Source: an uncultured Hyphomonadaceae bacterium (GTDB lineage Bacteria > Pseudomonadota > Alphaproteobacteria > Caulobacterales > Maricaulaceae). From it: DNA of 64,000 bases. The notes under the pieces were generated by a model. The model was not told where the DNA came from. It saw only the letters and a program-made list of their open reading frames with translations, and did no database searches. Shown here piece by piece: positions 5,095 to 58,819 of this stretch. Position numbers and translations under genes: made by a program. How positions within the stretch are numbered: position 1 is the stretch's first letter; each line of letters starts with the position of its first letter. Location: contig CAJXPX010000001.1 in assembly GCA_913058335.1 (NCBI GenBank), forward strand, positions 182,618 through 246,617, given 5' to 3'.

Positions 5095-6631
5095 ATTTTT
5101 TGCGGAGTTCGCGTTTTAAAATCTTTCCGTTTGGATTACGCGGAATTTCGTCAATAATATGAACCCCCGTAATCCGCTGCTGCCTACCGACTTGTTTGTT
5201 CGTCCAGGCTTTCAGTCCATCTTGATCAATTGAGCCATTTCTCGCCGCCACTATTGCGAGCGGTGTTTCTCCCCATTTCTTACTTTTCACACCTATCACG
5301 GCGACATCTTTAACATCGTTATGAAGGATCATTATCGCCTCTATATCTTGAGGATAAACATTCTGGCCTCCCGACAGGATCATGTCCTTTTTCCGGTCAA
5401 CGATATAGAGAAAGCCTTTTTCATCTAGATAACCGATATCTCCTGTCCGGAGCCAATGAATGCCCTGTCCGTCGACCCATAAGGAGTCTCTGGTCGCATC
5501 TTCTTTGTTATAATATTCAGGCATGACGATGCGCCCGCAAGAAACAATCTCTCCCGCTTGCCCCGTCTCGCATTCCCTATCATCGTCACCCAATATTTTA
5601 AGGTCCGTTCCGAGGAGCGGAAGCCCCACAGAGGAAAGACGATCCATGGCGTCTTCCGGATCCAATGTTGTAATTACGCCCTCGGTAAGACCGTATAATT
5701 CGATTATTCCGCAATCAAAACGGTCAAATAGGGCCGCTTTAACAGACTCCCTTAAAGGAGAGCCTGCACTCATCATGCTCTGCATTGACGAAACATCATA
5801 ATTGCTATGGTCAAAATCCATCATCCGTTCATATAAGGTGGGCACCATGGACAGATGCGTAATTTTTTCCTGTTCAATTTTCTGCCATAAGTTTTCGGCG
5901 TCGAATTTTCCATTTATCAAAACGGTTCCGCCGGCAATCATCGTCGAGAGGAGTCCAACCCAAGTTATATTAGAGTAAAGACCTATCGTGACGAGAAAAC
6001 GCGCAGAACTATTATAGCGGAGCGTTAACGCCATATCATAGGCCCAGTCACGGCGACCCTGATGGGTATGAACAATGCCCTTAGGCTGTCCAGTTGTTCC
6101 AGAAGAATAGATTATGTTCAAATAATCATCAGGCTTAAGTTCAACTTCGGGACGGGTTTTCAGTTGAGCATCTCGCCATATTTCGAATTCTTTCCATCCT
6201 GACAGCCCTGCCCCCGAACAGATACGATTGTTAAAAGCAATTTTTGGTAACTTACTTTCTAACCCTTCAATACGAGAAGCATGTTCTGCGGATGCCAATA
6301 TTGCGGTCGCGCCGCTATCTATCACCATATTTAATATAGCGTCATCTGTCACGGAAACATTTAGTGGCGCCGAAACAAACCCCCCCGCCATAATCCCGAA
6401 TAACGCTTCCATCATAGGCAGTCCGTTGGACATAAGTACAATAACCCGGTCCCCCTTTTCGAGGCCCATTTCTATCAGCCCATTGGCCACCTGATAGGTC
6501 CGCTCATTAAAGCTCTTCCAGCTGAGAGTTTCATCCTCTGTAATGAGAGCAGGCTTTTCTGCGCGCCATTTTCCATGGAGGGCAAAGATATCCGGCAGTA
6601 AAGGATCAGTGGGAAGAATTATTTTAGGCAC
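5072..6631 (-). CDS. Acyl-CoA synthetase (class I adenylate-forming enzyme)
   Basis: YSSGTTGQPKG, YGLTEG, LRTGDIG, DRKKDMILSGGQNVYP, PRNPNGKILK. Confidence 0.93.
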   Translation of the reverse strand: MPKIILPTDPLLPDIFALHGKWRAEKPALITEDETLSWKSFNERTYQVANGLIEMGLEKGDRVIVLMSNGLPMMEALFGIMAGGFVSAPLNVSVTDDAILNMVIDSGATAILASAEHASRIEGLESKLPKIAFNNRICSGAGLSGWKEFEIWRDAQLKTRPEVELKPDDYLNIIYSSGTTGQPKGIVHTHQGRRDWAYDMALTLRYNSSARFLVTIGLYSNITWVGLLSTMIAGGTVLINGKFDAENLWQKIEQEKITHLSMVPTLYERMMDFDHSNYDVSSMQSMMSAGSPLRESVKAALFDRFDCGIIELYGLTEGVITTLDPEDAMDRLSSVGLPLLGTDLKILGDDDRECETGQAGEIVSCGRIVMPEYYNKEDATRDSLWVDGQGIHWLRTGDIGYLDEKGFLYIVDRKKDMILSGGQNVYPQDIEAIMILHNDVKDVAVIGVKSKKWGETPLAIVAARNGSIDQDGLKAWTNKQVGRQQRITGVHIIDEIPRNPNGKILKRELRKKYEGRFFD

Positions 6632-6710
6632 AATAAGACTCGTAAAGTTTGACCCGCTTTGTAGAGAGCATCATAATCGAATTAATTTTTTCACGGACCG
6701 GAGACATCAA

Positions 6711-7379
6711 TTGGCGAAACCTGCCGAAACCCCTGAGCAAAAGCCGTCGAGGAAAACACGAATTCTCGACGCAGCTGAGGCTTTGTTTGCGCAATATGGT
6801 TTTGACGCCGTTACCCTGCGCCAAATCACAAAGCTGGCGGGCGTAGATGTCGCCCTTGCTAACTACCATTTCGGTCCGAAACGTGATTTGTTTAATGCGG
6901 TTCTGGAGCGCCGCGCAGATGTTTTGAACAATGCCCGCCACACTGCCCTGGATGAATGTTTGGCCGCTGCCGGGGATGAGGCTCCGACTGTTGACGCCAT
7001 TATTGAGGCTTATCTTGGCCCTCTTGGAAAAATCCATAACTCCGCAGATGAAGGATGGCGGCATTATTTGGCACTGATCGCTTACGTCAACAACTCCCAT
7101 GAATATGGCGGCGAGTTCATGACCCAATTTTTTAACCCGCTGGTGAAGCGCTTTATCGAGGCGCTTCGGCTGGCTTTGCCGGAGGCCGATGAAAAAGCAA
7201 TTTACTGGTCGTATCATTATCTATCCGGAGCTCTCACATTGACATTTGCGGATACAGGGCGACTGGACGTCTTATCAGACGGCTCAACGTCCTCTTCCGA
7301 CACGAAGTTGGGTTATGCGCATATGAGCTCTTTTGTTACTGCCGGTATCAAAGCTATATGCGCACAGGAAACACCTTAA
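6711..7379 (+). CDS. TetR/AcrR family transcriptional regulator
   Basis: HTH RILDAAEALFAQYGFDAVTLRQITKLAGVDVALANYHFGPKRDLF. Start moved to TTG 6711, which follows a GGAGA RBS; the track start at 6543 overlaps the divergent ligase. Confidence 0.9.
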   Translation: MAKPAETPEQKPSRKTRILDAAEALFAQYGFDAVTLRQITKLAGVDVALANYHFGPKRDLFNAVLERRADVLNNARHTALDECLAAAGDEAPTVDAIIEAYLGPLGKIHNSADEGWRHYLALIAYVNNSHEYGGEFMTQFFNPLVKRFIEALRLALPEADEKAIYWSYHYLSGALTLTFADTGRLDVLSDGSTSSSDTKLGYAHMSSFVTAGIKAICAQETP

Positions 7380-9649
7380 TATTTAAAGCCTATGGATGCC
7401 GTGACAGTTGTCGGCGAGGTGTAGAAGGTTGAATAAGCACTATCTATTCCGAGCGGGGCCGGGTTGGCAAAATTGTACCCCGCGACTCGCGCGCGCTCAT
7501 CCGTCAAGTTCCGGCCATAGATGCCGAAGTCCCAACGCTCACTTTCACTCGTCCATTTTACACCCAGATCAAAGACCGTATATTTCTCTGGATCCAAAGC
7601 CGGACCGCCCTGTGGAAAACTCGGATTGGTTCCGGATGCAAATCCTGGATTAGCTGCGTTGAACAAGAAATACTCATCCCGGTAAGACGCTGACCCAGTA
7701 AATTTCAGGCTTCCCTTATTGTCGAGGTCATACTCATAGGCGAAGCCAAACCGCGTCGTAAACTCAGGGGTGTTCTGAGGCACATATTGTTCGGCAATAT
7801 TCCCCAATGCCGCATCAATTACTTCTGTGATTTCCGCATCTATATAGCCGATAACAGAGTTGAGCGTGAAATTATCGCTTAATCGAAGCGCGCCTTCAAA
7901 TTCAATGCCCTTATATTCCGACTTACCCGCATTCAAGACAGTAGAGGCAAAATCATTCGGAGTGCCCACCGAACCGGGCAAAGCTGGATTGTAAATCGCC
8001 GTTTGCACAGTAATTTGCTGATCTTTATAATCCGACATAAATCCTGCCAAAGCATAAGTTAGTCGGTTATCAAAAAGCGACCCTTTGGCGCCGATCTCAT
8101 AGCTATCCACGGTTTCCGGGCCAAACCCTGCGCGACTAATCCCTTGGTCAGCGGACGCGTTTGACCGAGGGTCAAAACCGCCGGCCTTGAAGCCTCTGGA
8201 ATAGGACGCGTAAACATTCATTTCCGGAGTAAGGGCATAATCTACAGCAATCCGAGGTGTAAATTCATCATCTTTACGCTCAATATCGGAGTAGCCTGTC
8301 AGTAGTGTTGGGCCGATTGAGCCTGTATTTGAGTCATCAAAACTGCCTGAGCCCACACCAAACCAAAGTTCCCGAGTTACATCTGCGATAGATTTGTCTT
8401 CAGTATAGCGGGCGCCTAAAGAAACATTCAAACGGTCCGTAAAGGCATAAGTGAAGTCCCCGTAAAATGAGAGATTCTTTTTTTGCTGCTCTCCCGCTAC
8501 GTAAACCGTCAGGCCAAGTCCGCCGAGGATCGTGTCAAAGGCGCCATCAGCTGTACCTTCTAGGTAATAGACCCCAGCAACACCGGAAAGGCGGTCCCCA
8601 GAGTACAAAACCTGAAATTCCTGGCTGAATTGATCGTCATTATAAAAGGCCGGAACATCAAAATCAGGTTGGGGTAAAGCATCAAAATCAATAGGAGTTA
8701 CTGTCTCACCCTCGCGATAAGCCGTGACCGACTTAAAGGTTAAACTATCTGTCGCCTCCCATGACGCCGTCAAGGAAGCCCCTTTTGTTTTGACTTCGTT
8801 ACGATCTCCTGCCCCGCCTCGCGTATCGTATTCATCCTCCGTTACAGCTATTGTTCCATCAAAACTCGGCAAGAGGCGATGGCCGTGTTTTGCGTTCGAA
8901 TCGTCTTGAGTTATATCTGCCGCGGCTCGAATATTGATCGTATCTGTTGGTTGCCATTCGGCGCTTAGGCGTCCTGCCAAAACATCTTTATTGTAATGAT
9001 CGGCCCCAGTGAAAAGATTCTGGCCAAATCCATCCCGACGGTAATGCGCAATCGCGCCGCCCACGGCAAAAGTGTCGCCAACAGGAATGGAGCCTGATGC
9101 AATTTGATCAAACTGGTTATAAGTGCCTACATTAATTCTTGCTTTTAGCTCCGGCTCTTCCATGTTTAAGCCCTTGGTGACGTATTTAATCGCGCCGCCA
9201 ATGGTGTTCCGGCCGTATAGCGTGCCTTGCGGACCGCGTAGGACTTCGACACGTTCTACATCGAAAATATCCAGAACTGCGCCTTGTGGACGGGCAATAT
9301 ACACATCATCGACATAAATCCCGACACCCGGCTCAAACCCCCAGACCGGATCCTGCTGACCCACACCCCGAATAAAAGCGATGAGCGTAGAGTTTGACCC
9401 GCGCGCAACTTCTATCGTCGCATTTGGCGTAACTTTTTGAACATCCGTAATATCAATTGCACCAATGTCCTGAAGAGCCTCTCCGGAAATAGCCGTGACA
9501 GAAACAGGAACATCTTTAAGGCTTTGTTCGCGGCGCTGAGCTGTGACAACGATTTCATCATTGTTTTGCGCGAAGGCCGGATCGGTAAATGCCATCGCAG
9601 ACAAGACTAATATGGACGACGACAATTTCAGTGCGAGACTGGTTTTCAT
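7376..9649 (-). CDS. TonB-dependent receptor
   Basis: Signal peptide, EIVVTAQRREQSL, plug motif VEVLRGPQGTLYGRNTIGGAI, C-terminal aromatic residue (GFKY). Confidence 0.95.
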   Translation of the reverse strand: MKTSLALKLSSSILVLSAMAFTDPAFAQNNDEIVVTAQRREQSLKDVPVSVTAISGEALQDIGAIDITDVQKVTPNATIEVARGSNSTLIAFIRGVGQQDPVWGFEPGVGIYVDDVYIARPQGAVLDIFDVERVEVLRGPQGTLYGRNTIGGAIKYVTKGLNMEEPELKARINVGTYNQFDQIASGSIPVGDTFAVGGAIAHYRRDGFGQNLFTGADHYNKDVLAGRLSAEWQPTDTINIRAAADITQDDSNAKHGHRLLPSFDGTIAVTEDEYDTRGGAGDRNEVKTKGASLTASWEATDSLTFKSVTAYREGETVTPIDFDALPQPDFDVPAFYNDDQFSQEFQVLYSGDRLSGVAGVYYLEGTADGAFDTILGGLGLTVYVAGEQQKKNLSFYGDFTYAFTDRLNVSLGARYTEDKSIADVTRELWFGVGSGSFDDSNTGSIGPTLLTGYSDIERKDDEFTPRIAVDYALTPEMNVYASYSRGFKAGGFDPRSNASADQGISRAGFGPETVDSYEIGAKGSLFDNRLTYALAGFMSDYKDQQITVQTAIYNPALPGSVGTPNDFASTVLNAGKSEYKGIEFEGALRLSDNFTLNSVIGYIDAEITEVIDAALGNIAEQYVPQNTPEFTTRFGFAYEYDLDNKGSLKFTGSASYRDEYFLFNAANPGFASGTNPSFPQGGPALDPEKYTVFDLGVKWTSESERWDFGIYGRNLTDERARVAGYNFANPAPLGIDSAYSTFYTSPTTVTASIGFKY

Positions 9650-9676
9650 AATTATTCCCCATGGAGCGACACTAAT

Positions 9677-9733
9677 TTCAACAAGTGTTCAATTTCAACG
9701 CTTGTTGAATAACAGGGGTTGTAAATTTGTCAA
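9677..9733 (-). promoter_or_regulatory. Sigma70-like promoter of the TonB receptor, with two tandem palindromic operator boxes
   Basis: Minus-strand TTGACA (9733-9728), 16 nt, then TATTCA. Boxes TTCAACAAGTGTTCAA (9677-9692) and TTCAACGCTTGTTGAA (9694-9709) overlap the -10/+1 region. Confidence 0.6.
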
Positions 9734-9939
9734 TACGGGTTTTTAAATGATTTAGACCTGTTGCAAATTTGCCGTCTTGATTGAAATATGCCACGCGAGA
9801 GAAGACAAAGAGAGTAACGCTTCTCAGGGCATGGTCCATTTTCGGCGATGGCAAGAGCTTGAGGGCATTTCATATTTCCGCTCAAGCGCTTTTCCCTGCT
9901 CGCAATCCAGTGCGGAGCGTCTTACGGCTTCCAAATGAA

Positions 9940-10231
9940 GGTGGACAGCCCGCAGAGCTTCGGCCTCTGCCGGAGACCGAATAAAATATGTGTTTCGCAA
10001 AAGCCAAAGCTCTGCGGCAGCGGTTGGAACCGAAGCGGCCTCTTACACGTCTCCCACAGTCACGCCGGTACGAAGCCGTTTGCAGCTTCTGGGCGCGGTA
10101 GGCAGGCTAACCCACTTTCGGTGACCCGGCACAGGCTTGCTGTCACACAAGCTGCTCAGTCCCGCTGTCCCCTGAACCAGAACCTGACGCGTTCCTGTCC
10201 GTGTCCAAGAGAACGAGGTTGAATATAGGGG
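9940..10231 (-). ncRNA. Candidate large structured non-coding RNA, family not recognised
   Basis: GC-rich intergenic block with many helices (15-bp 9950-9964/10003-10017; 7-bp 9943-9949/10164-10170; 7-bp 10072-10078/10083-10089; 5' hairpin 10181-10220). The three clear mismatches are C-A on plus, i.e. G-U on minus. CCCCTATAT -10-like motif just upstream on the minus strand. Confidence 0.55.
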
Positions 10232-10461
10232 CAAAATGCAAAGTCAGGATCATTCTCTCTATAATTTTGTAAGCGGTTGAGAATTATGAGGTTTCTAAAT
10301 CAAAACATGAGGACGGTGCTCGTCTGAACCTCTTTCCCCGACGAACGCAAAAGGATTTTTAGAAACATCTTTCCCTCTTACACTTTATCCAAAGCTTGCA
10401 ATTCGTAGGAAAAGAAACAATTCTCCTGCCATCCCTTTAAAATTCATCTTGAAAATATCCT

Positions 10462-11592
10462 ATGTCCCTTCCCCTCTCCGGCTATCGCCTCATTGAACTC
10501 GCCGGTCTCGGCCCGTGTCCTTATGCTGGAATGATCTTGGCAGATATGGGGGCGGAGATTATTTTGGTTGACCGTCCCGGAGGACTAACTTTCCCAGATA
10601 TTGCCCATCGCGGAAAACGCAGGCTCACACTCGATTTACAGACATCTGAAGGGGTAGCTGTACTAATGGACCTTATAAAAACGGCAGACGGTTTATTCGA
10701 AGGCCTGCGTCCTGGGGTCACAGAACGATTAGGTCTAGGGCCCAAAGACTGTCACGCCGTGAATGCAAAACTTGTTTACGGGCGCATGACCGGCTGGGGC
10801 CAAAACGGCCCTTGGGCGAAAAAGGCAGGCCATGATATCAACTATATTGGCCTGTCCGGCGCGCTTTATGCGATGGGTCAAGAGGAGGAAGTCCCACCCG
10901 TCCCGCTAAATTTGATTGGCGATTACGGCGGGGGTAGTCTTTTTCTTGTCGCAGGCATGCTGGCCGCTTTGCTACAGGCAGAAAAAACCGGAAAAGGAGA
11001 AATTATTGACACTGCCATGATTGACGGCGCTTCATCTCTCATGACGCTGTTTTATACTTTATCAGGACTTGGACAATGGACACCGAAACGCGGTCAAAAC
11101 CTATTGGACGGGGCGATGCCCTACTACCGGTGTTATAAAACATCCGACGGGCAGTTCATGGCAGTAGGATGTATCGAGCCACAATTTTTCGCTGAAATGC
11201 TGTCTCTTTTAAAAATCGAGGCAAAGGACTTTGGGGGACAGAATGAGACGGCGCGTCATACGGAGCAAAAGGCAAAATTAGAAAAAATATTTGCCTCCAA
11301 AACACGTGAAGAATGGTCGGAGGTATTTGATGGATCGGACGCCTGTGTCACGCCTGTATTGTCCTATGTCGAAGCCGCCGAGCACCCTCAAATGGCCGCG
11401 CGTGGCGGTCTAAGTCCCGTTGGCCCCTTTACTCACCCTCGAAGCGCGCCCGTCTTTGGAGAAATAACGGCGCATACGCCACCCGATATTAGACTGCCCA
11501 ATAAAGACGTCACAGACGTCTTTACAGAACTGGGTTATTCGCCGTCAAAAATTAACGAGTTAATCAGTCAAAAAATCACGCCTCAAACATAA
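10462..11592 (+). CDS. CaiB/BaiF family CoA transferase (alpha-methylacyl-CoA racemase-like)
   Basis: ELAGLGPCPYAGMILADMGAEII, EGLRPGVTERLGLGP, GHDINY, NLIGDYGGG. Confidence 0.92.
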   Translation: MSLPLSGYRLIELAGLGPCPYAGMILADMGAEIILVDRPGGLTFPDIAHRGKRRLTLDLQTSEGVAVLMDLIKTADGLFEGLRPGVTERLGLGPKDCHAVNAKLVYGRMTGWGQNGPWAKKAGHDINYIGLSGALYAMGQEEEVPPVPLNLIGDYGGGSLFLVAGMLAALLQAEKTGKGEIIDTAMIDGASSLMTLFYTLSGLGQWTPKRGQNLLDGAMPYYRCYKTSDGQFMAVGCIEPQFFAEMLSLLKIEAKDFGGQNETARHTEQKAKLEKIFASKTREEWSEVFDGSDACVTPVLSYVEAAEHPQMAARGGLSPVGPFTHPRSAPVFGEITAHTPPDIRLPNKDVTDVFTELGYSPSKINELISQKITPQT

Positions 11593-36838: not shown

Positions 36839-36914
36839 TCCGCAATAGCTCAGTTGGTAGAGCAGCTGACTGTTAATCAGCTTGTCGCAGGTTCGAGTCC
36901 TGCTTGCGGAGCCA
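36839..36914 (+). tRNA. tRNA-Asn (GTT)
   Basis: TCCGCAA/TTGCGGA acceptor stem, D-arm AGCTCAGTTGGTAGAGC, anticodon arm GCTGA-CTGTTAA-TCAGC, T-loop GGTTCGAGTCC, encoded CCA; 76 nt. Confidence 0.98.
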
Positions 36915-56449: not shown

Positions 56450-58819
56450 TCAGTAGGCGTAGCTTAATCGAACGCCATATGTGCGGGGAGCGCCTGGGAC
56501 ACGAAAAATCGTATCAATAATTGTATCAACATTCGTCCAATAATTTTCTTCCAAAAGGTTACGGGCATATAAATCTACAGACCAAGAATCATCCAAAGTA
56601 TGTATACCGATGACACCGTTGAGGATTGCATAATCGTCAATTTTAAAGTCCGTTTCATTCCCAATCGAACCTTGTGCTTTTGACTGATAGCTTGCACTCA
56701 AAACTGCATTGAAGCCTAGTTTATCTGTAATTGGCCTATCATATTGGACCTGTCCGTTTATGTGCCACTTCGGTGAATTCGGAAACTCCAATCCGGAAAA
56801 GTCTGCTTCTTGCCCAAGCCGATTAATACCAATGAATTCTGTTACTTCAGTATTAACATAAGAAACTCCTGTCTGAAGCCTAAGATGATCTGTAGGATTG
56901 ACCGCAAGTTCAGTTTCCATACCCCACACTCTTGATTTCGGGACATTTACGATGCGAGGTAGCGTGGTAAAAATAATGTCTTGAACATCACCATAAATTT
57001 GTTTGTCTTTGTAATCGTAATAATACCCACTGAAATTTGCCTGCGCCAAGCCGTTAAAAAGACCAGCCTTTATACCCGCTTCATAGGCCGTAACTTCCTC
57101 TTGAACCGCAGGAGAGAATTGGGTTTCAACATTGGCTGGCAAAACAGGGAAAGCACCGGACTTAAACCCTCTTGCTACTGATGCATAAAGTAAAGTCTCA
57201 GAATTTAATTCAAAATTAAGGCCAACCCTACCGGAAACATTGTTTTCATCTAACGTGGGTTGGGCAAGTACATTTTCTGAAAAGTCGGCGCTATAAGTCA
57301 AACATTCATTGGGCTGAACATTTGTGTTAGACCCTGCCAAAGCGGCAACAGCTGTATTCCAGACAGGAATTGTGTTCCCATTAAAATCGCGGGAGCAACC
57401 GGCGAAGCGGATCTTATCCTCGGTATATCGAATCCCGCCAACAAGTGTCCATTTATCAGCAAAGGCCCATTCTGCATTTGCGAGAATAGACGCCGACTCA
57501 TTATCTTGATCGGTAGAGTTTCGGAAATTCGCAAATCCTCCTGCGACTTGCTCCGCTGTATAATCTGTTTGAGGCACAGTTGCCCCGACAGCTCTCAAAA
57601 GTCGAACAGTAGAGTTCTCATCGTAATAGCCGATTTGATCGTCACTGACTTTATCTTGGGCATAAAATACGCCGATTAAATAGTCTAATTTATCAGTGCT
57701 TCCCACTAACCTAAATTCTTGTGAAAATGACTCTATATTGCCGTTTGACTCATAAGCCAGTAATTCGAAAGATGTACCGTCAAGATCATTAAAGTCCTTT
57801 CTCTTTACATTATTATAGCCCGTGAGAGAGACTAAGCTAAGGCTGTCAGAAAGGTCGTAATTCACACGCCCACTCAACGAATAGAAACGAGAGTCCATTT
57901 CAAAAGGCGGTTTACCATTCTCCGGCGCATCCCAATCGGCATCCCCAATCTCAAAATTAGATTGCGCGACATCCGTTAGTCCCGGAATAGCCGTTGCCGG
58001 TCGGGCAATATCCAAAGCATTTGCTTGAGGGGCTACAGTGTCGGACTGATCTTTCCACCATGAGGCACCAAGTAAGACTTGAAGTCGGTCAGTCGGTGTC
58101 CAATCAAGTGTGAAACGAGCCGCCAGCCTATCTTTCTGACCTAACTTATCGCCTGGGCGGGAAAGACTCTCCTGCCATCCCTCTCCACTATTCTCCTGAC
58201 GCATAGCAAATCGAAAGTTCAGATCATCCGTTACCGGGCCGCTGGCATAACCCTCTGTATTGACTGTTTCGTAATTACCAATTTCAATTGAAACGCCCCC
58301 TTCGTAGTAATCCGTCGGCTTAGCCGTAATGAAATTAATTAAGCCGCCCGTTGTGTTTCTGCCGTATAGTGTCCCCTGGGGTCCTTTCAAAACTTCGACA
58401 CGCTCTAAATCAAAAGTTGGTCCACTCGCGAAATAGGGATAAACATAGGCCACCTCATCTACATAAATACCGACGGGACTGGTAGAAGATAAATTAGGTG
58501 TTTGAAATCCAATCCCGCGAAGCGTATAAATTGGTGTATTCGCGCTAGACTTTGCATAATTAAATCCTGAAACGACCTGCGTCAGGTCAGAAGTCGTCTC
58601 TACCCCCGCATTTTTTAAGCCCTCACTACTGATTGCCTGCATGGTAAGCCCGACATCATTAATATCTTGAGATCGTTTTTGAGCTGTCACAACGACAACA
58701 TCCTGAATTCTGTCTGACGTTGCTTGCGGCGTATCATTTAGAGTTTGCGCATAAGCTGGAGCAAAAGTTGGCCCAACGATAGCCATACCTGTCACAAGCA
58801 ATTTATTGTGAATTTTCAT
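56450..58819 (-). CDS. TonB-dependent receptor
   Basis: VVVTAQKRSQDINDV, VEVLKGPQGTLYGRNTTGG, terminal RLSYAY; ATG 58819 preferred as start. Confidence 0.95.
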   Translation of the reverse strand: MKIHNKLLVTGMAIVGPTFAPAYAQTLNDTPQATSDRIQDVVVVTAQKRSQDINDVGLTMQAISSEGLKNAGVETTSDLTQVVSGFNYAKSSANTPIYTLRGIGFQTPNLSSTSPVGIYVDEVAYVYPYFASGPTFDLERVEVLKGPQGTLYGRNTTGGLINFITAKPTDYYEGGVSIEIGNYETVNTEGYASGPVTDDLNFRFAMRQENSGEGWQESLSRPGDKLGQKDRLAARFTLDWTPTDRLQVLLGASWWKDQSDTVAPQANALDIARPATAIPGLTDVAQSNFEIGDADWDAPENGKPPFEMDSRFYSLSGRVNYDLSDSLSLVSLTGYNNVKRKDFNDLDGTSFELLAYESNGNIESFSQEFRLVGSTDKLDYLIGVFYAQDKVSDDQIGYYDENSTVRLLRAVGATVPQTDYTAEQVAGGFANFRNSTDQDNESASILANAEWAFADKWTLVGGIRYTEDKIRFAGCSRDFNGNTIPVWNTAVAALAGSNTNVQPNECLTYSADFSENVLAQPTLDENNVSGRVGLNFELNSETLLYASVARGFKSGAFPVLPANVETQFSPAVQEEVTAYEAGIKAGLFNGLAQANFSGYYYDYKDKQIYGDVQDIIFTTLPRIVNVPKSRVWGMETELAVNPTDHLRLQTGVSYVNTEVTEFIGINRLGQEADFSGLEFPNSPKWHINGQVQYDRPITDKLGFNAVLSASYQSKAQGSIGNETDFKIDDYAILNGVIGIHTLDDSWSVDLYARNLLEENYWTNVDTIIDTIFRVPGAPRTYGVRLSYAY

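Follow-up and report, generated by a model that had tools for sequence, protein, structure and literature searches.

A candidate family of multi-copy structured RNA genes, narrowly distributed in Litorimonas and its close relatives

The closest described counterparts of the element considered here, which occupies positions 9931-10215 on the minus strand of a 64,000-nt stretch of DNA from an uncultured Hyphomonadaceae bacterium (contig CAJXPX010000001.1, positions 182,618 to 246,617; the whole stretch is referred to below as the window), are the HEARO-type mobile RNAs, the mosaic repeats and the multi-copy small RNAs (sRNAs) of Alphaproteobacteria. HEARO and the IscB-type omega RNAs (RF02033, IS605-orfB motifs) resemble the element in being structured, about 300 nt long and present in many dispersed copies; they ride on mobile DNA, and some of their copies lack a protein gene, which is a further likeness. 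The REP/BIME, RIME, ERIC, Correia and BOX repeats and the miniature inverted-repeat transposable elements (MITEs) share with it a dispersed intergenic location, a mosaic make-up, hairpins, a tendency to cluster with other repeats, breaks in genome assemblies and presence or absence between relatives. The CcsR/'cuckoo' and AbcR families of alphaproteobacterial sRNAs, in turn, comprise several paralogous genes, each with its own promoter (a putative one in the present case), and the RpoE-dependent sRNA Pos19 has a TGATCC -35 element (PMC5036791), like the box upstream of the element.

Despite these likenesses, the element belongs to none of the three groups when tested for their defining features. 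Specifically, unlike HEARO and the omega RNAs, it has no covariance-model match at E<=10, no IscB/TnpB-like open reading frame (ORF) at about 15 loci and no variable, flank-derived guide at either end; for IS110 bridge RNAs and the omega RNAs of IscB and TnpB an adjacent nuclease or recombinase gene would be expected, and none is found within 3.5 kb of about 15 element loci. Unlike the mosaic repeats and MITEs, it is longer, has 12 helices arranged around a near-invariant junction of 110 nt, pairs in a strand-specific manner and is without terminal inverted repeats. The sRNAs of the CcsR, AbcR and Pos19 type measure 60-220 nt, consist of simple hairpins with short seed motifs and are represented in Rfam, whereas the element is multi-branched, about 290 nt long, present in more copies and without an Rfam match, and the -10 part of its upstream box is not CGTA (PMC5507510). 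A likeness to retron msr-msd RNAs, in which small hairpins and a single long 3' hairpin are flanked by short complementary segments at the two ends, belongs only to the fold drawn in a first-pass annotation of the same DNA; unlike the retrons, which are single-copy, the element has no adjacent reverse transcriptase gene, and its terminal pairing lacks comparative support. The same annotation had placed the element outside the known families, and this holds: a scan of the whole window against Rfam 15 at gathering thresholds returned one match, a tRNA at 36839-36911, and none to RNase P, tmRNA, SRP, 6S, HEARO, riboswitch or alphaproteobacterial sRNA families, and a scan of three copies at E<=10 returned only microRNA-type noise far below threshold.

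The reading favoured here, held with somewhat more confidence than doubt, is that 9931-10215 (minus strand) is one member of a multi-copy gene family, restricted to a single lineage, whose products are structured non-coding RNAs about 290 nt in length. As a structured RNA family it is previously undescribed and narrowly distributed. A stand-alone structured RNA of the minus strand had been proposed by the first-pass annotation at nearly these coordinates (9940-10231); its observation is partly confirmed and its interpretation partly supported, and the multi-copy, dispersed-repeat nature of the element had been missed.

The evidence that carries this reading is comparative. A consensus fold obtained with RNAalifold and pair counts from 16 full copies has 84 pairs in 12 helices, with 98.7% of cells paired, and double-sided (compensatory) changes are seen in 26 of the 84 pairs (108 cells), so that the covariation among homologs on which the earlier proposal depended is indeed present. 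None of 500 shuffles matched the pairing and covariation values, and controls with slid partners were 38-48% paired. The parts of the folded RNA are the following, from 5' to 3':

10168-10212, minus strand: 5' hairpin H0+H1, of 11 + 5 bp, with an internal loop containing an invariant GGACAG (10200-10195).
10018-10167, minus strand: central multi-branch domain, closed by CAGCGR/YCGCUG (10167-10162 / 10023-10018).
9950-10017, minus strand: long 3' hairpin H5, with an outer GC-rich stem and an inner YUUGC/GCARG stem (inverted repeat I1).
9931-9949, minus strand: 3' tail, GCUGUCC followed by a U-rich stretch; GGGCWGUCC and the U-rich run are conserved in 21 copies.

In the 5' hairpin, 100% of cells are paired and six pairs show double-sided changes, with arms swapped from copy to copy (e.g. 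GGAAC/GUUCU, GGUGA/UCACU and GGUAG/CUACC replacing one another). The central domain contains P3, the variable hairpin H2 (10152-10135, loop GUGACA), P4, P5, P6 and P7, the last of which is GAAGCUG-YAAA-CGGCUUC (10089-10072); its covarying pairs are 63/206, 65/105, 112/196 and 114/194, together with six of the seven pairs in H2. H5 has an invariant 3' bulge, GGUCUCCGG (9980-9972), a hypervariable AU-rich apical loop, and ten pairs with double-sided changes in its outer and inner stems. Entire hairpin arms have been exchanged between copies with pairing retained, and the combinations in which these arms occur indicate recombination among paralogs. Two tertiary contacts may be envisaged in addition, one between the GGACAG loop and the CUGUCC tail, the other between GGGAG and the CUCC bulge.

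This consensus keeps some of the helices that had been drawn from the single sequence and replaces others. The sequences quoted in the first-pass annotation are found where it placed them (GGACAGC 10170-10164 / GCTGTCC 9949-9943, GGAGAC / GTCTCC, the small hairpins, and the -10-like motif CCCCTATAT at 10231-10223), as are the 15-bp arms 10017-10003 / 9964-9950, which form part of 21 nt at 86% complementarity. In the long 3' helix built from these arms the outer 8 bp are backed by compensatory changes, but the analogy with a T-arm is not. Among the inner hairpins, GCUUG/CAAGC covaries and GAAGCUG-YAAA-CGGCUUC is kept and nearly invariant, whereas GCCGG/CCGGC and CGGU/ACCG are invariant and clash with covarying helices (63/206, which is A-U 11 times and G-C 5 times; 65/105, 112/196, 114/194). 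A 40-nt hairpin at the 5' end is superseded by the hairpin at 10212-10168 with its six covarying pairs, and a suggested pseudoknot between GGAGAC and GUCUCC loses its footing in the alignment, where the middle A-U is kept in only 4 of 16 copies and is uncompensated in the other 12.

The two strands differ strongly. Over 9940-10231 the minus strand folds at -124.3 kcal/mol (z = -3.46, with 0 of 200 shuffles as good), whereas the fold of the plus strand is ordinary (z = -0.66). For the family as a whole, the consensus folds at -109.4 kcal/mol in the sense of the window's minus strand and at -72.3 kcal/mol as the complement, and the consensus helices contain 205 G-U/U-G cells versus 2 A-C cells. 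From the energy difference and the excess of G-U it follows that the functional form is single-stranded and of minus sense, and the strand-specific RNA pairing claimed for the window copy thus extends across the family. Conservation, for its part, peaks in the middle: the central 110 nt (columns 103-211) have a mean identity between copies of 93.7% (minimum 88%), beyond the 70-83% DNA identity of the neighbouring receptor, coenzyme A (CoA)-transferase and TetR genes in the same species pairs, and the peripheral hairpins stand at about 71-74%.

An ORF of 95 amino acids (aa) runs antisense through the whole element (plus strand, 9935-10222), similar frames are open in most copies, and a 63-aa ORF lies on the minus strand. 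It is barely credible that either of them is a gene for a small protein. One antisense frame is open or nearly so in most copies, but the open frame shifts register across insertions and deletions between copies, and substitutions in the helices are compensatory rather than codon-wise. Neither ORF has a Pfam match, and a protein search with the antisense ORF gave one weak match among 5.8 billion proteins. Parts of the plus strand are T-poor (positive AT skew in several windows), and this is suggested to be the cause of the rarity of stop codons; most simply, the 95-aa ORF is an artefact of base composition and a possible source of mis-annotation as a gene.

The first-pass annotation had also likened the element to a tRNA, with an acceptor-like stem, a discriminator A followed by CC, and maturation by RNase P or a CCA-adding enzyme. 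In the window copy GGACAGC and GCUGUCC can indeed pair, with ACC coming next, and this possible closing stem of the 5' and 3' regions, seen in the window copy only, recalls tmRNA and the bacterial Y RNA (YrlA). However, none of its seven pairs covaries: column pair 59/293 fails to pair in 4 of 16 copies, as does 55/297 in 3 of 16, with uncompensated mismatches (7 of 21 copies overall, in which the GCUGUCC arm reads GCAGUCC), and the 5' half of the stem is taken up by covarying helices. The ACC gives way in other copies to UAU (UAUUUU), UUU (UUUUUU), UAC (UACAUU), GCC, UCC or ACU. ARAGORN found no tRNA or tmRNA in 9500-10600, and Rfam no tRNA or tmRNA match on the element. Unlike in tRNA-like RNAs, therefore, the acceptor stem, the 3' ACC(A) and the T-arm are not conserved; a tRNA-like RNA is highly improbable, and maturation by RNase P or a CCA-adding enzyme is without basis, as the tRNA-like architecture fails the comparative test.

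RNA corresponding to the element is found in X20, a metatranscriptome from the same sample as X1 (the DNA run that contains the window genome), where the evidence consists of assembler contigs. Contigs cover 9938-10186 at a depth of 22-29, whereas depth is 0 in 9640-9891, in 10228-10395 and in the receptor gene; nearby mRNAs reach 6-13. DNA contamination is ruled out because the RNA depth is 0 over much of the window where the DNA depth is about 25. In X22, an independent RNA-Seq run, 10032-10163 is covered at a depth of 16-18 and the flanks are empty. A 418-nt RNA contig (an insert of about 367 nt after adapter letters), placed against the copy L007, begins about 80 nt before the core and reaches 12 nt downstream of GCUGUCC. 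The coverage of a paralog in X20 stops 12 nt after GCUGUCC (about 9931 here), whereas the DNA of the same paralog continues in X1; adapter-bounded contig ends are common in X20, so that 9931 only marks the end of coverage. Taking the adapter letters at both ends of the RNA contig for discrete RNA ends was considered and rejected, since adapters cap many mRNA contigs in an orientation unrelated to the gene strand. The minus-strand transcript expected by the first-pass annotation is thus only partly in evidence: metatranscriptome contigs cover the core, but they come from paralogs and carry no strand information. Another X20 contig, of 273 nt, follows the element in sense from 10186 to 10015, passes into 71 nt of the 3' hairpin of another copy and then turns back along 10157-10186 on the other strand; no counterpart was seen in the DNA run, and a snap-back cDNA is a possible origin.

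Both the fold and the transcripts bear on the possibility that the element is inert palindromic intergenic repeat DNA, similar to REP/BIME, and that its transcription is incidental. Small repeats able to form hairpins are numerous in the host genomes and occur in clusters in the same spacers, and the RNA abundance per copy is unremarkable, as such a repeat would have it. Yet a 270-nt core with 12 helices and strand-specific G-U pairing, a central domain conserved beyond the neighbouring protein genes, and RNA coverage that is limited to the element and leaves the flanks empty all argue against it, and inert repeat DNA appears quite unlikely.

The repetition of the element is visible in sequencing depth. 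In X1 the flanks have a depth of about 25 versus 49-340 over 9895-10282, and the assembly shatters at the element into short contigs that continue into other flanks. In X16, an isolate-like DNA run of 2.9 Mb, the receptor gene and its flanks have a depth of 209 and 9899-10258 a depth of 400-2977; the spacer between the receptor and CoA-transferase genes is empty of the element there, yet the depth of the element is high. X18 and X19 show the same pattern as X16 and include a contig that skips the insertion. Within X1 and X16 the 3' half of the 5' hairpin (10166-10202) is deeper than the central domain (308 vs 53-76 in X1; 2977 vs about 1100-1650 in X16), and this module may also occur outside full-length copies.

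No second copy is present elsewhere in the 64-kb window. Exact-pattern scans with strings from the central domain located 20 copies besides that of the window, in three genomes of the Litorimonas clade and three metagenome contigs; the element-bearing genomes are those of L. haliclonae CIP111178T (with the copies L006, L007 and L049), Litorimonas sp. PW5 and a Hyphomonadaceae metagenome-assembled genome (MAG), and no others were found in these scans. The central-domain patterns succeeded where an exact 23-mer from the 'acceptor' region, scanned in 185,579 species genomes, gave no match. At least seven copies are assembled in each of two MAGs, several of them at contig ends, and depth ratios point to up to about 14 per genome. 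Some sites are orthologous across genomes (L006/L008; L007/L009/L010; L030/L049; L053/L042; L050/L047) and the remaining ones are not. Two candidate copies, L011 and L043, and most of the pattern matches in metagenomes were discarded as chance matches. A BLASTN search of a 601-nt region against plasmids and phages returned no match, and a scan of viral contigs chance matches only.

What is repeated is larger than the RNA. Homology between non-orthologous copies extends from about 10297-10343 to about 9848-9890, with fuzzy outer ends, and the intergenic unit is about 400-460 bp in size, with a conserved core at about 10214-9943 (minus strand), near the coordinates first noted. Its extent and its parts outside the RNA core are these:

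About 9872-10332, minus strand: the complete unit, comprising the upstream boxes, the RNA core and the 3' module, within a lineage-specific insertion of about 600 bp.
10222-10252, minus strand: upstream box TGATCC-N17-CCTATATT, with a -35-like TGATCC (10252-10247) and a -10-like TATATT (10227-10222).
9872-9930, minus strand: 3' module shared by most copies, with a bulged hairpin CUCCGCA/UGCGAG (9917-9899) and the end GGGA(G)GAAAAGCG.

The box has the consensus (T)GATCC-NN-ACTTTGC-N-TTTTG-SSSS-TATATT and lies upstream of all 16 copies with a complete 5' end; a second, similar box, ATCCGCACTTATCC, is found about 85 nt farther upstream. In L007, L009, L010 and L044 a segment of about 105 nt with two hairpins is intercalated between box and core (L007:437-537), and the box is therefore about 105 nt farther upstream of the core; an X20 RNA contig starts inside this segment of such a copy. 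The box is read as a putative promoter of the RNA gene, possibly one for a sigma factor of the extracytoplasmic function (ECF) type. In the window it does not recur as a general promoter, the single other exact match lying inside a coding region. RpoE/ChrR-type ECF promoters likewise have TGATCC as their -35 element (PMC5036791, PMC5507510). In its -10 part, however, the box departs from such a promoter (CCTAT/GGTAT vs CGTA; PMC5507510), and the spacing fits poorly, so that an ECF sigma factor or stress induction acting through the box is kept only as a lead. The 3' module is seen in the window, L030, L007, L008, L053, L049 and others, and its hairpin comes in two variants, CUC-C-GCA/UGC-GAG and CUG-A-CCC/GGG-CAG, which differ in sequence and preserve the shape. 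RNA coverage of the paralog discussed above ends before this module.

Dispersal on this scale brings in the main rival of an RNA gene family, namely a non-autonomous mobile element (MITE-like or PATE-like) whose fold would serve its own propagation, in the form of single-stranded DNA or of an RNA that acts as cofactor or template for an enzyme with its gene elsewhere in the genome; the transcripts would then be part of the cycle or by-products. This rival gains from the dispersal (at least seven assembled copies per genome, about 14 by depth, with presence or absence between species), from the mosaic of hairpin modules shuffled between copies, and from the orientation bias: the genes adjoining the various loci are unrelated housekeeping genes, 10 of the 13 downstream genes are co-oriented with the element, and strand-biased insertion could explain this. 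It is also in keeping with copies that lie among other small repeats at points where assemblies are broken and with a repeated unit that exceeds the RNA and takes in the upstream box, and strand-specific structure would also be expected under single-strand transposition.

Several of the marks of a mobile element are nevertheless missing. Inverted-repeat scans of three units gave internal hairpins only and no terminal inverted repeats, and there is no recognisable target-site duplication, with the proviso that the empty sites available for comparison are only from species whose spacers are too diverged for placing the junctions and that the ends of the unit are fuzzy. No gene for a transposase, TnpB/IscB, recombinase, reverse transcriptase or nuclease lies within 3.5 kb of about 15 independent loci, and the HEARO and IS605-orfB RNA models are without a match. 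A guide test was likewise negative, in that the variable H1, H2 and H5-loop segments match their own flanks no longer than the flanks of other copies. Sites that are orthologous in three genomes point to long-lived copies, and an invariant multi-helix junction of 110 nt would be unusual for transposon ends. A mobile element in this sense is accordingly regarded as possible, though with distinctly less confidence than doubt.

Other small repeats accompany the element. A second family, of about 115-150 bp with terminal inverted repeats CCTGTCATTCCGC...GCGGAATGACAGG (L045:505-619, L007:895, L044:7585, L052:2853, L053:7281), often follows the RNA element at a distance of about 90 nt in related genomes; it is absent from the window. 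A short GC-rich hairpin, differing in sequence from copy to copy (e.g. CCCCGTAAACGGGG, CTTCTCCCCACGGGAGAAG), precedes nearly all copies and sits 5-15 nt upstream of the first ATCC box in L008, L053, L041, L045, L049, L006 and L028; these hairpins could be terminators of the upstream genes or a preferred context for insertion.

The window copy is housed in an 812-bp spacer (9650-10461) between two divergent genes:

7376-9649, minus strand: TonB-dependent receptor gene, with Plug and beta-barrel domains.
10462-11592, plus strand: family III CoA-transferase gene.

The nearest relatives of the receptor are in Litorimonas and Hyphomonadaceae genomes (68-75% identity), and the gene order HIBADH, CoA-transferase, receptor, TetR, AMP-ligase is kept in three genomes (L001-L003). 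In these the spacer is about 205 bp, compared with 812 bp in the window, and only its receptor-proximal 110 bp or so align with the window, which therefore has about 600 bp extra. The G+C content is 0.54-0.62 across the element region, an island in a spacer of otherwise 0.34-0.45. Judged from these alignments, the window copy is a lineage-specific insertion between the CoA-transferase and receptor genes, and it is not part of the control region of either.

A riboswitch or a long cis-regulatory leader of the receptor gene, the latter raised in the first-pass annotation, would fit the position of the element, which shares the strand of that gene and lies 291 nt before it. However, a TTGACA box (9733-9728) and the palindromes TTCAACAAGCGTTGAA and TTGAACACTTGTTGAA are found on the minus strand in 9650-9760, downstream of the element and before the receptor gene; receptor orthologs without the element (68-75% identity) keep this promoter and operator, and the block is near-identical in three Litorimonas genomes whose coding sequences there are only about 70% identical. 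By this pattern of conservation, 9650-9760 is the predicted control region of the receptor gene itself, with its own promoter and operator, and its position between element and gene removes the long-leader reading. In addition, the neighbours of other copies vary: some copies are followed by genes for an ABC-F ATPase, alanine racemase, AccD and RNase R, others are oriented against the adjacent gene (PpdK and others being on the opposite strand), and X20 covers the element while the receptor gene has a depth of 0. A receptor leader is hence extremely improbable. A TetR-family gene (6543-7379) lies just past the receptor gene, and the palindromes are therefore probably the operator of this TetR-family regulator. 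A 90-nt direct repeat of 71% identity links 9177-9266, partly in the receptor gene, with 58326-58415, and a paralogous receptor gene is probably present at this second arm, near 58.3 kb.

If the RNA gene family is accepted as the preferred reading, the following picture may be drawn. The gene would travel inside the unit of about 400-460 bp, which brings its own upstream box and ends in a GC-rich hairpin, GCUGUCC and a U-rich tail. Copying has placed the unit at seven or more assembled intergenic sites in each genome of Litorimonas and its close relatives (about 14 at most, judged from depth), and some paralogs have a 5' extension of 105 nt and give the assembled RNA of about 370 nt. The RNA would act in trans, and its activity would reside in the invariant central four-helix junction, to which a conserved protein or another partner would most likely bind. 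The peripheral hairpins H0/H1, H2 and H5 would be scaffolding, subject to compensatory drift and shuffled among paralogs by recombination or gene conversion. A different and unlikely variant is that the RNA is the non-coding part of an unrecognised mobile or defence-type system, in which a trans-encoded enzyme would bind the invariant central junction, the RNA gene would spread with or through that activity, and the shuffled peripheral hairpins or the hypervariable H5 loop would give each copy its specificity.

A number of points weigh against an RNA gene family and keep confidence in it limited. Specifically, (i) the paralogs to which the RNA contigs correspond (L028-like, L030-like and another, more diverged) share the central domain with the window copy, and no contig spans that copy's own combination of hairpins from end to end; (ii) the strand and the exact ends of the RNA, including the 5' end of the window copy, are inferred, as the orientation of adapters in X20 does not follow the gene strand; (iii) relative to its DNA copy number, the RNA does not exceed ordinary mRNAs in abundance; (iv) neither a sigma-70 promoter nor an intrinsic terminator emerged from a consensus scan, and the box is promoter-like only; (v) the family is confined to one narrow clade in the pattern scans; (vi) recent spread or gene conversion, rather than selection, could be partly behind the identity of the central domain; and (vii) the family has no known partner, target or phenotype.

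Should the preferred reading be true, the element would represent a new mid-sized structured RNA family, well supported by sequence comparison, in a group for which there is hardly any RNA biology, the alga-associated marine Alphaproteobacteria. It shows an unusual mix of features, that is, a near-invariant multi-helix core, freely swapped peripheral hairpins, and at least seven copies per 3-Mb genome, with a putative promoter and no neighbouring protein gene. This mix lies between classical sRNA genes and mobile repeats, and the family is therefore a natural place to seek a new RNA-protein partnership. In practical terms the element disrupts short-read assemblies and gives rise to spurious ORFs, so that such genomes would be better annotated with the help of a covariance model.

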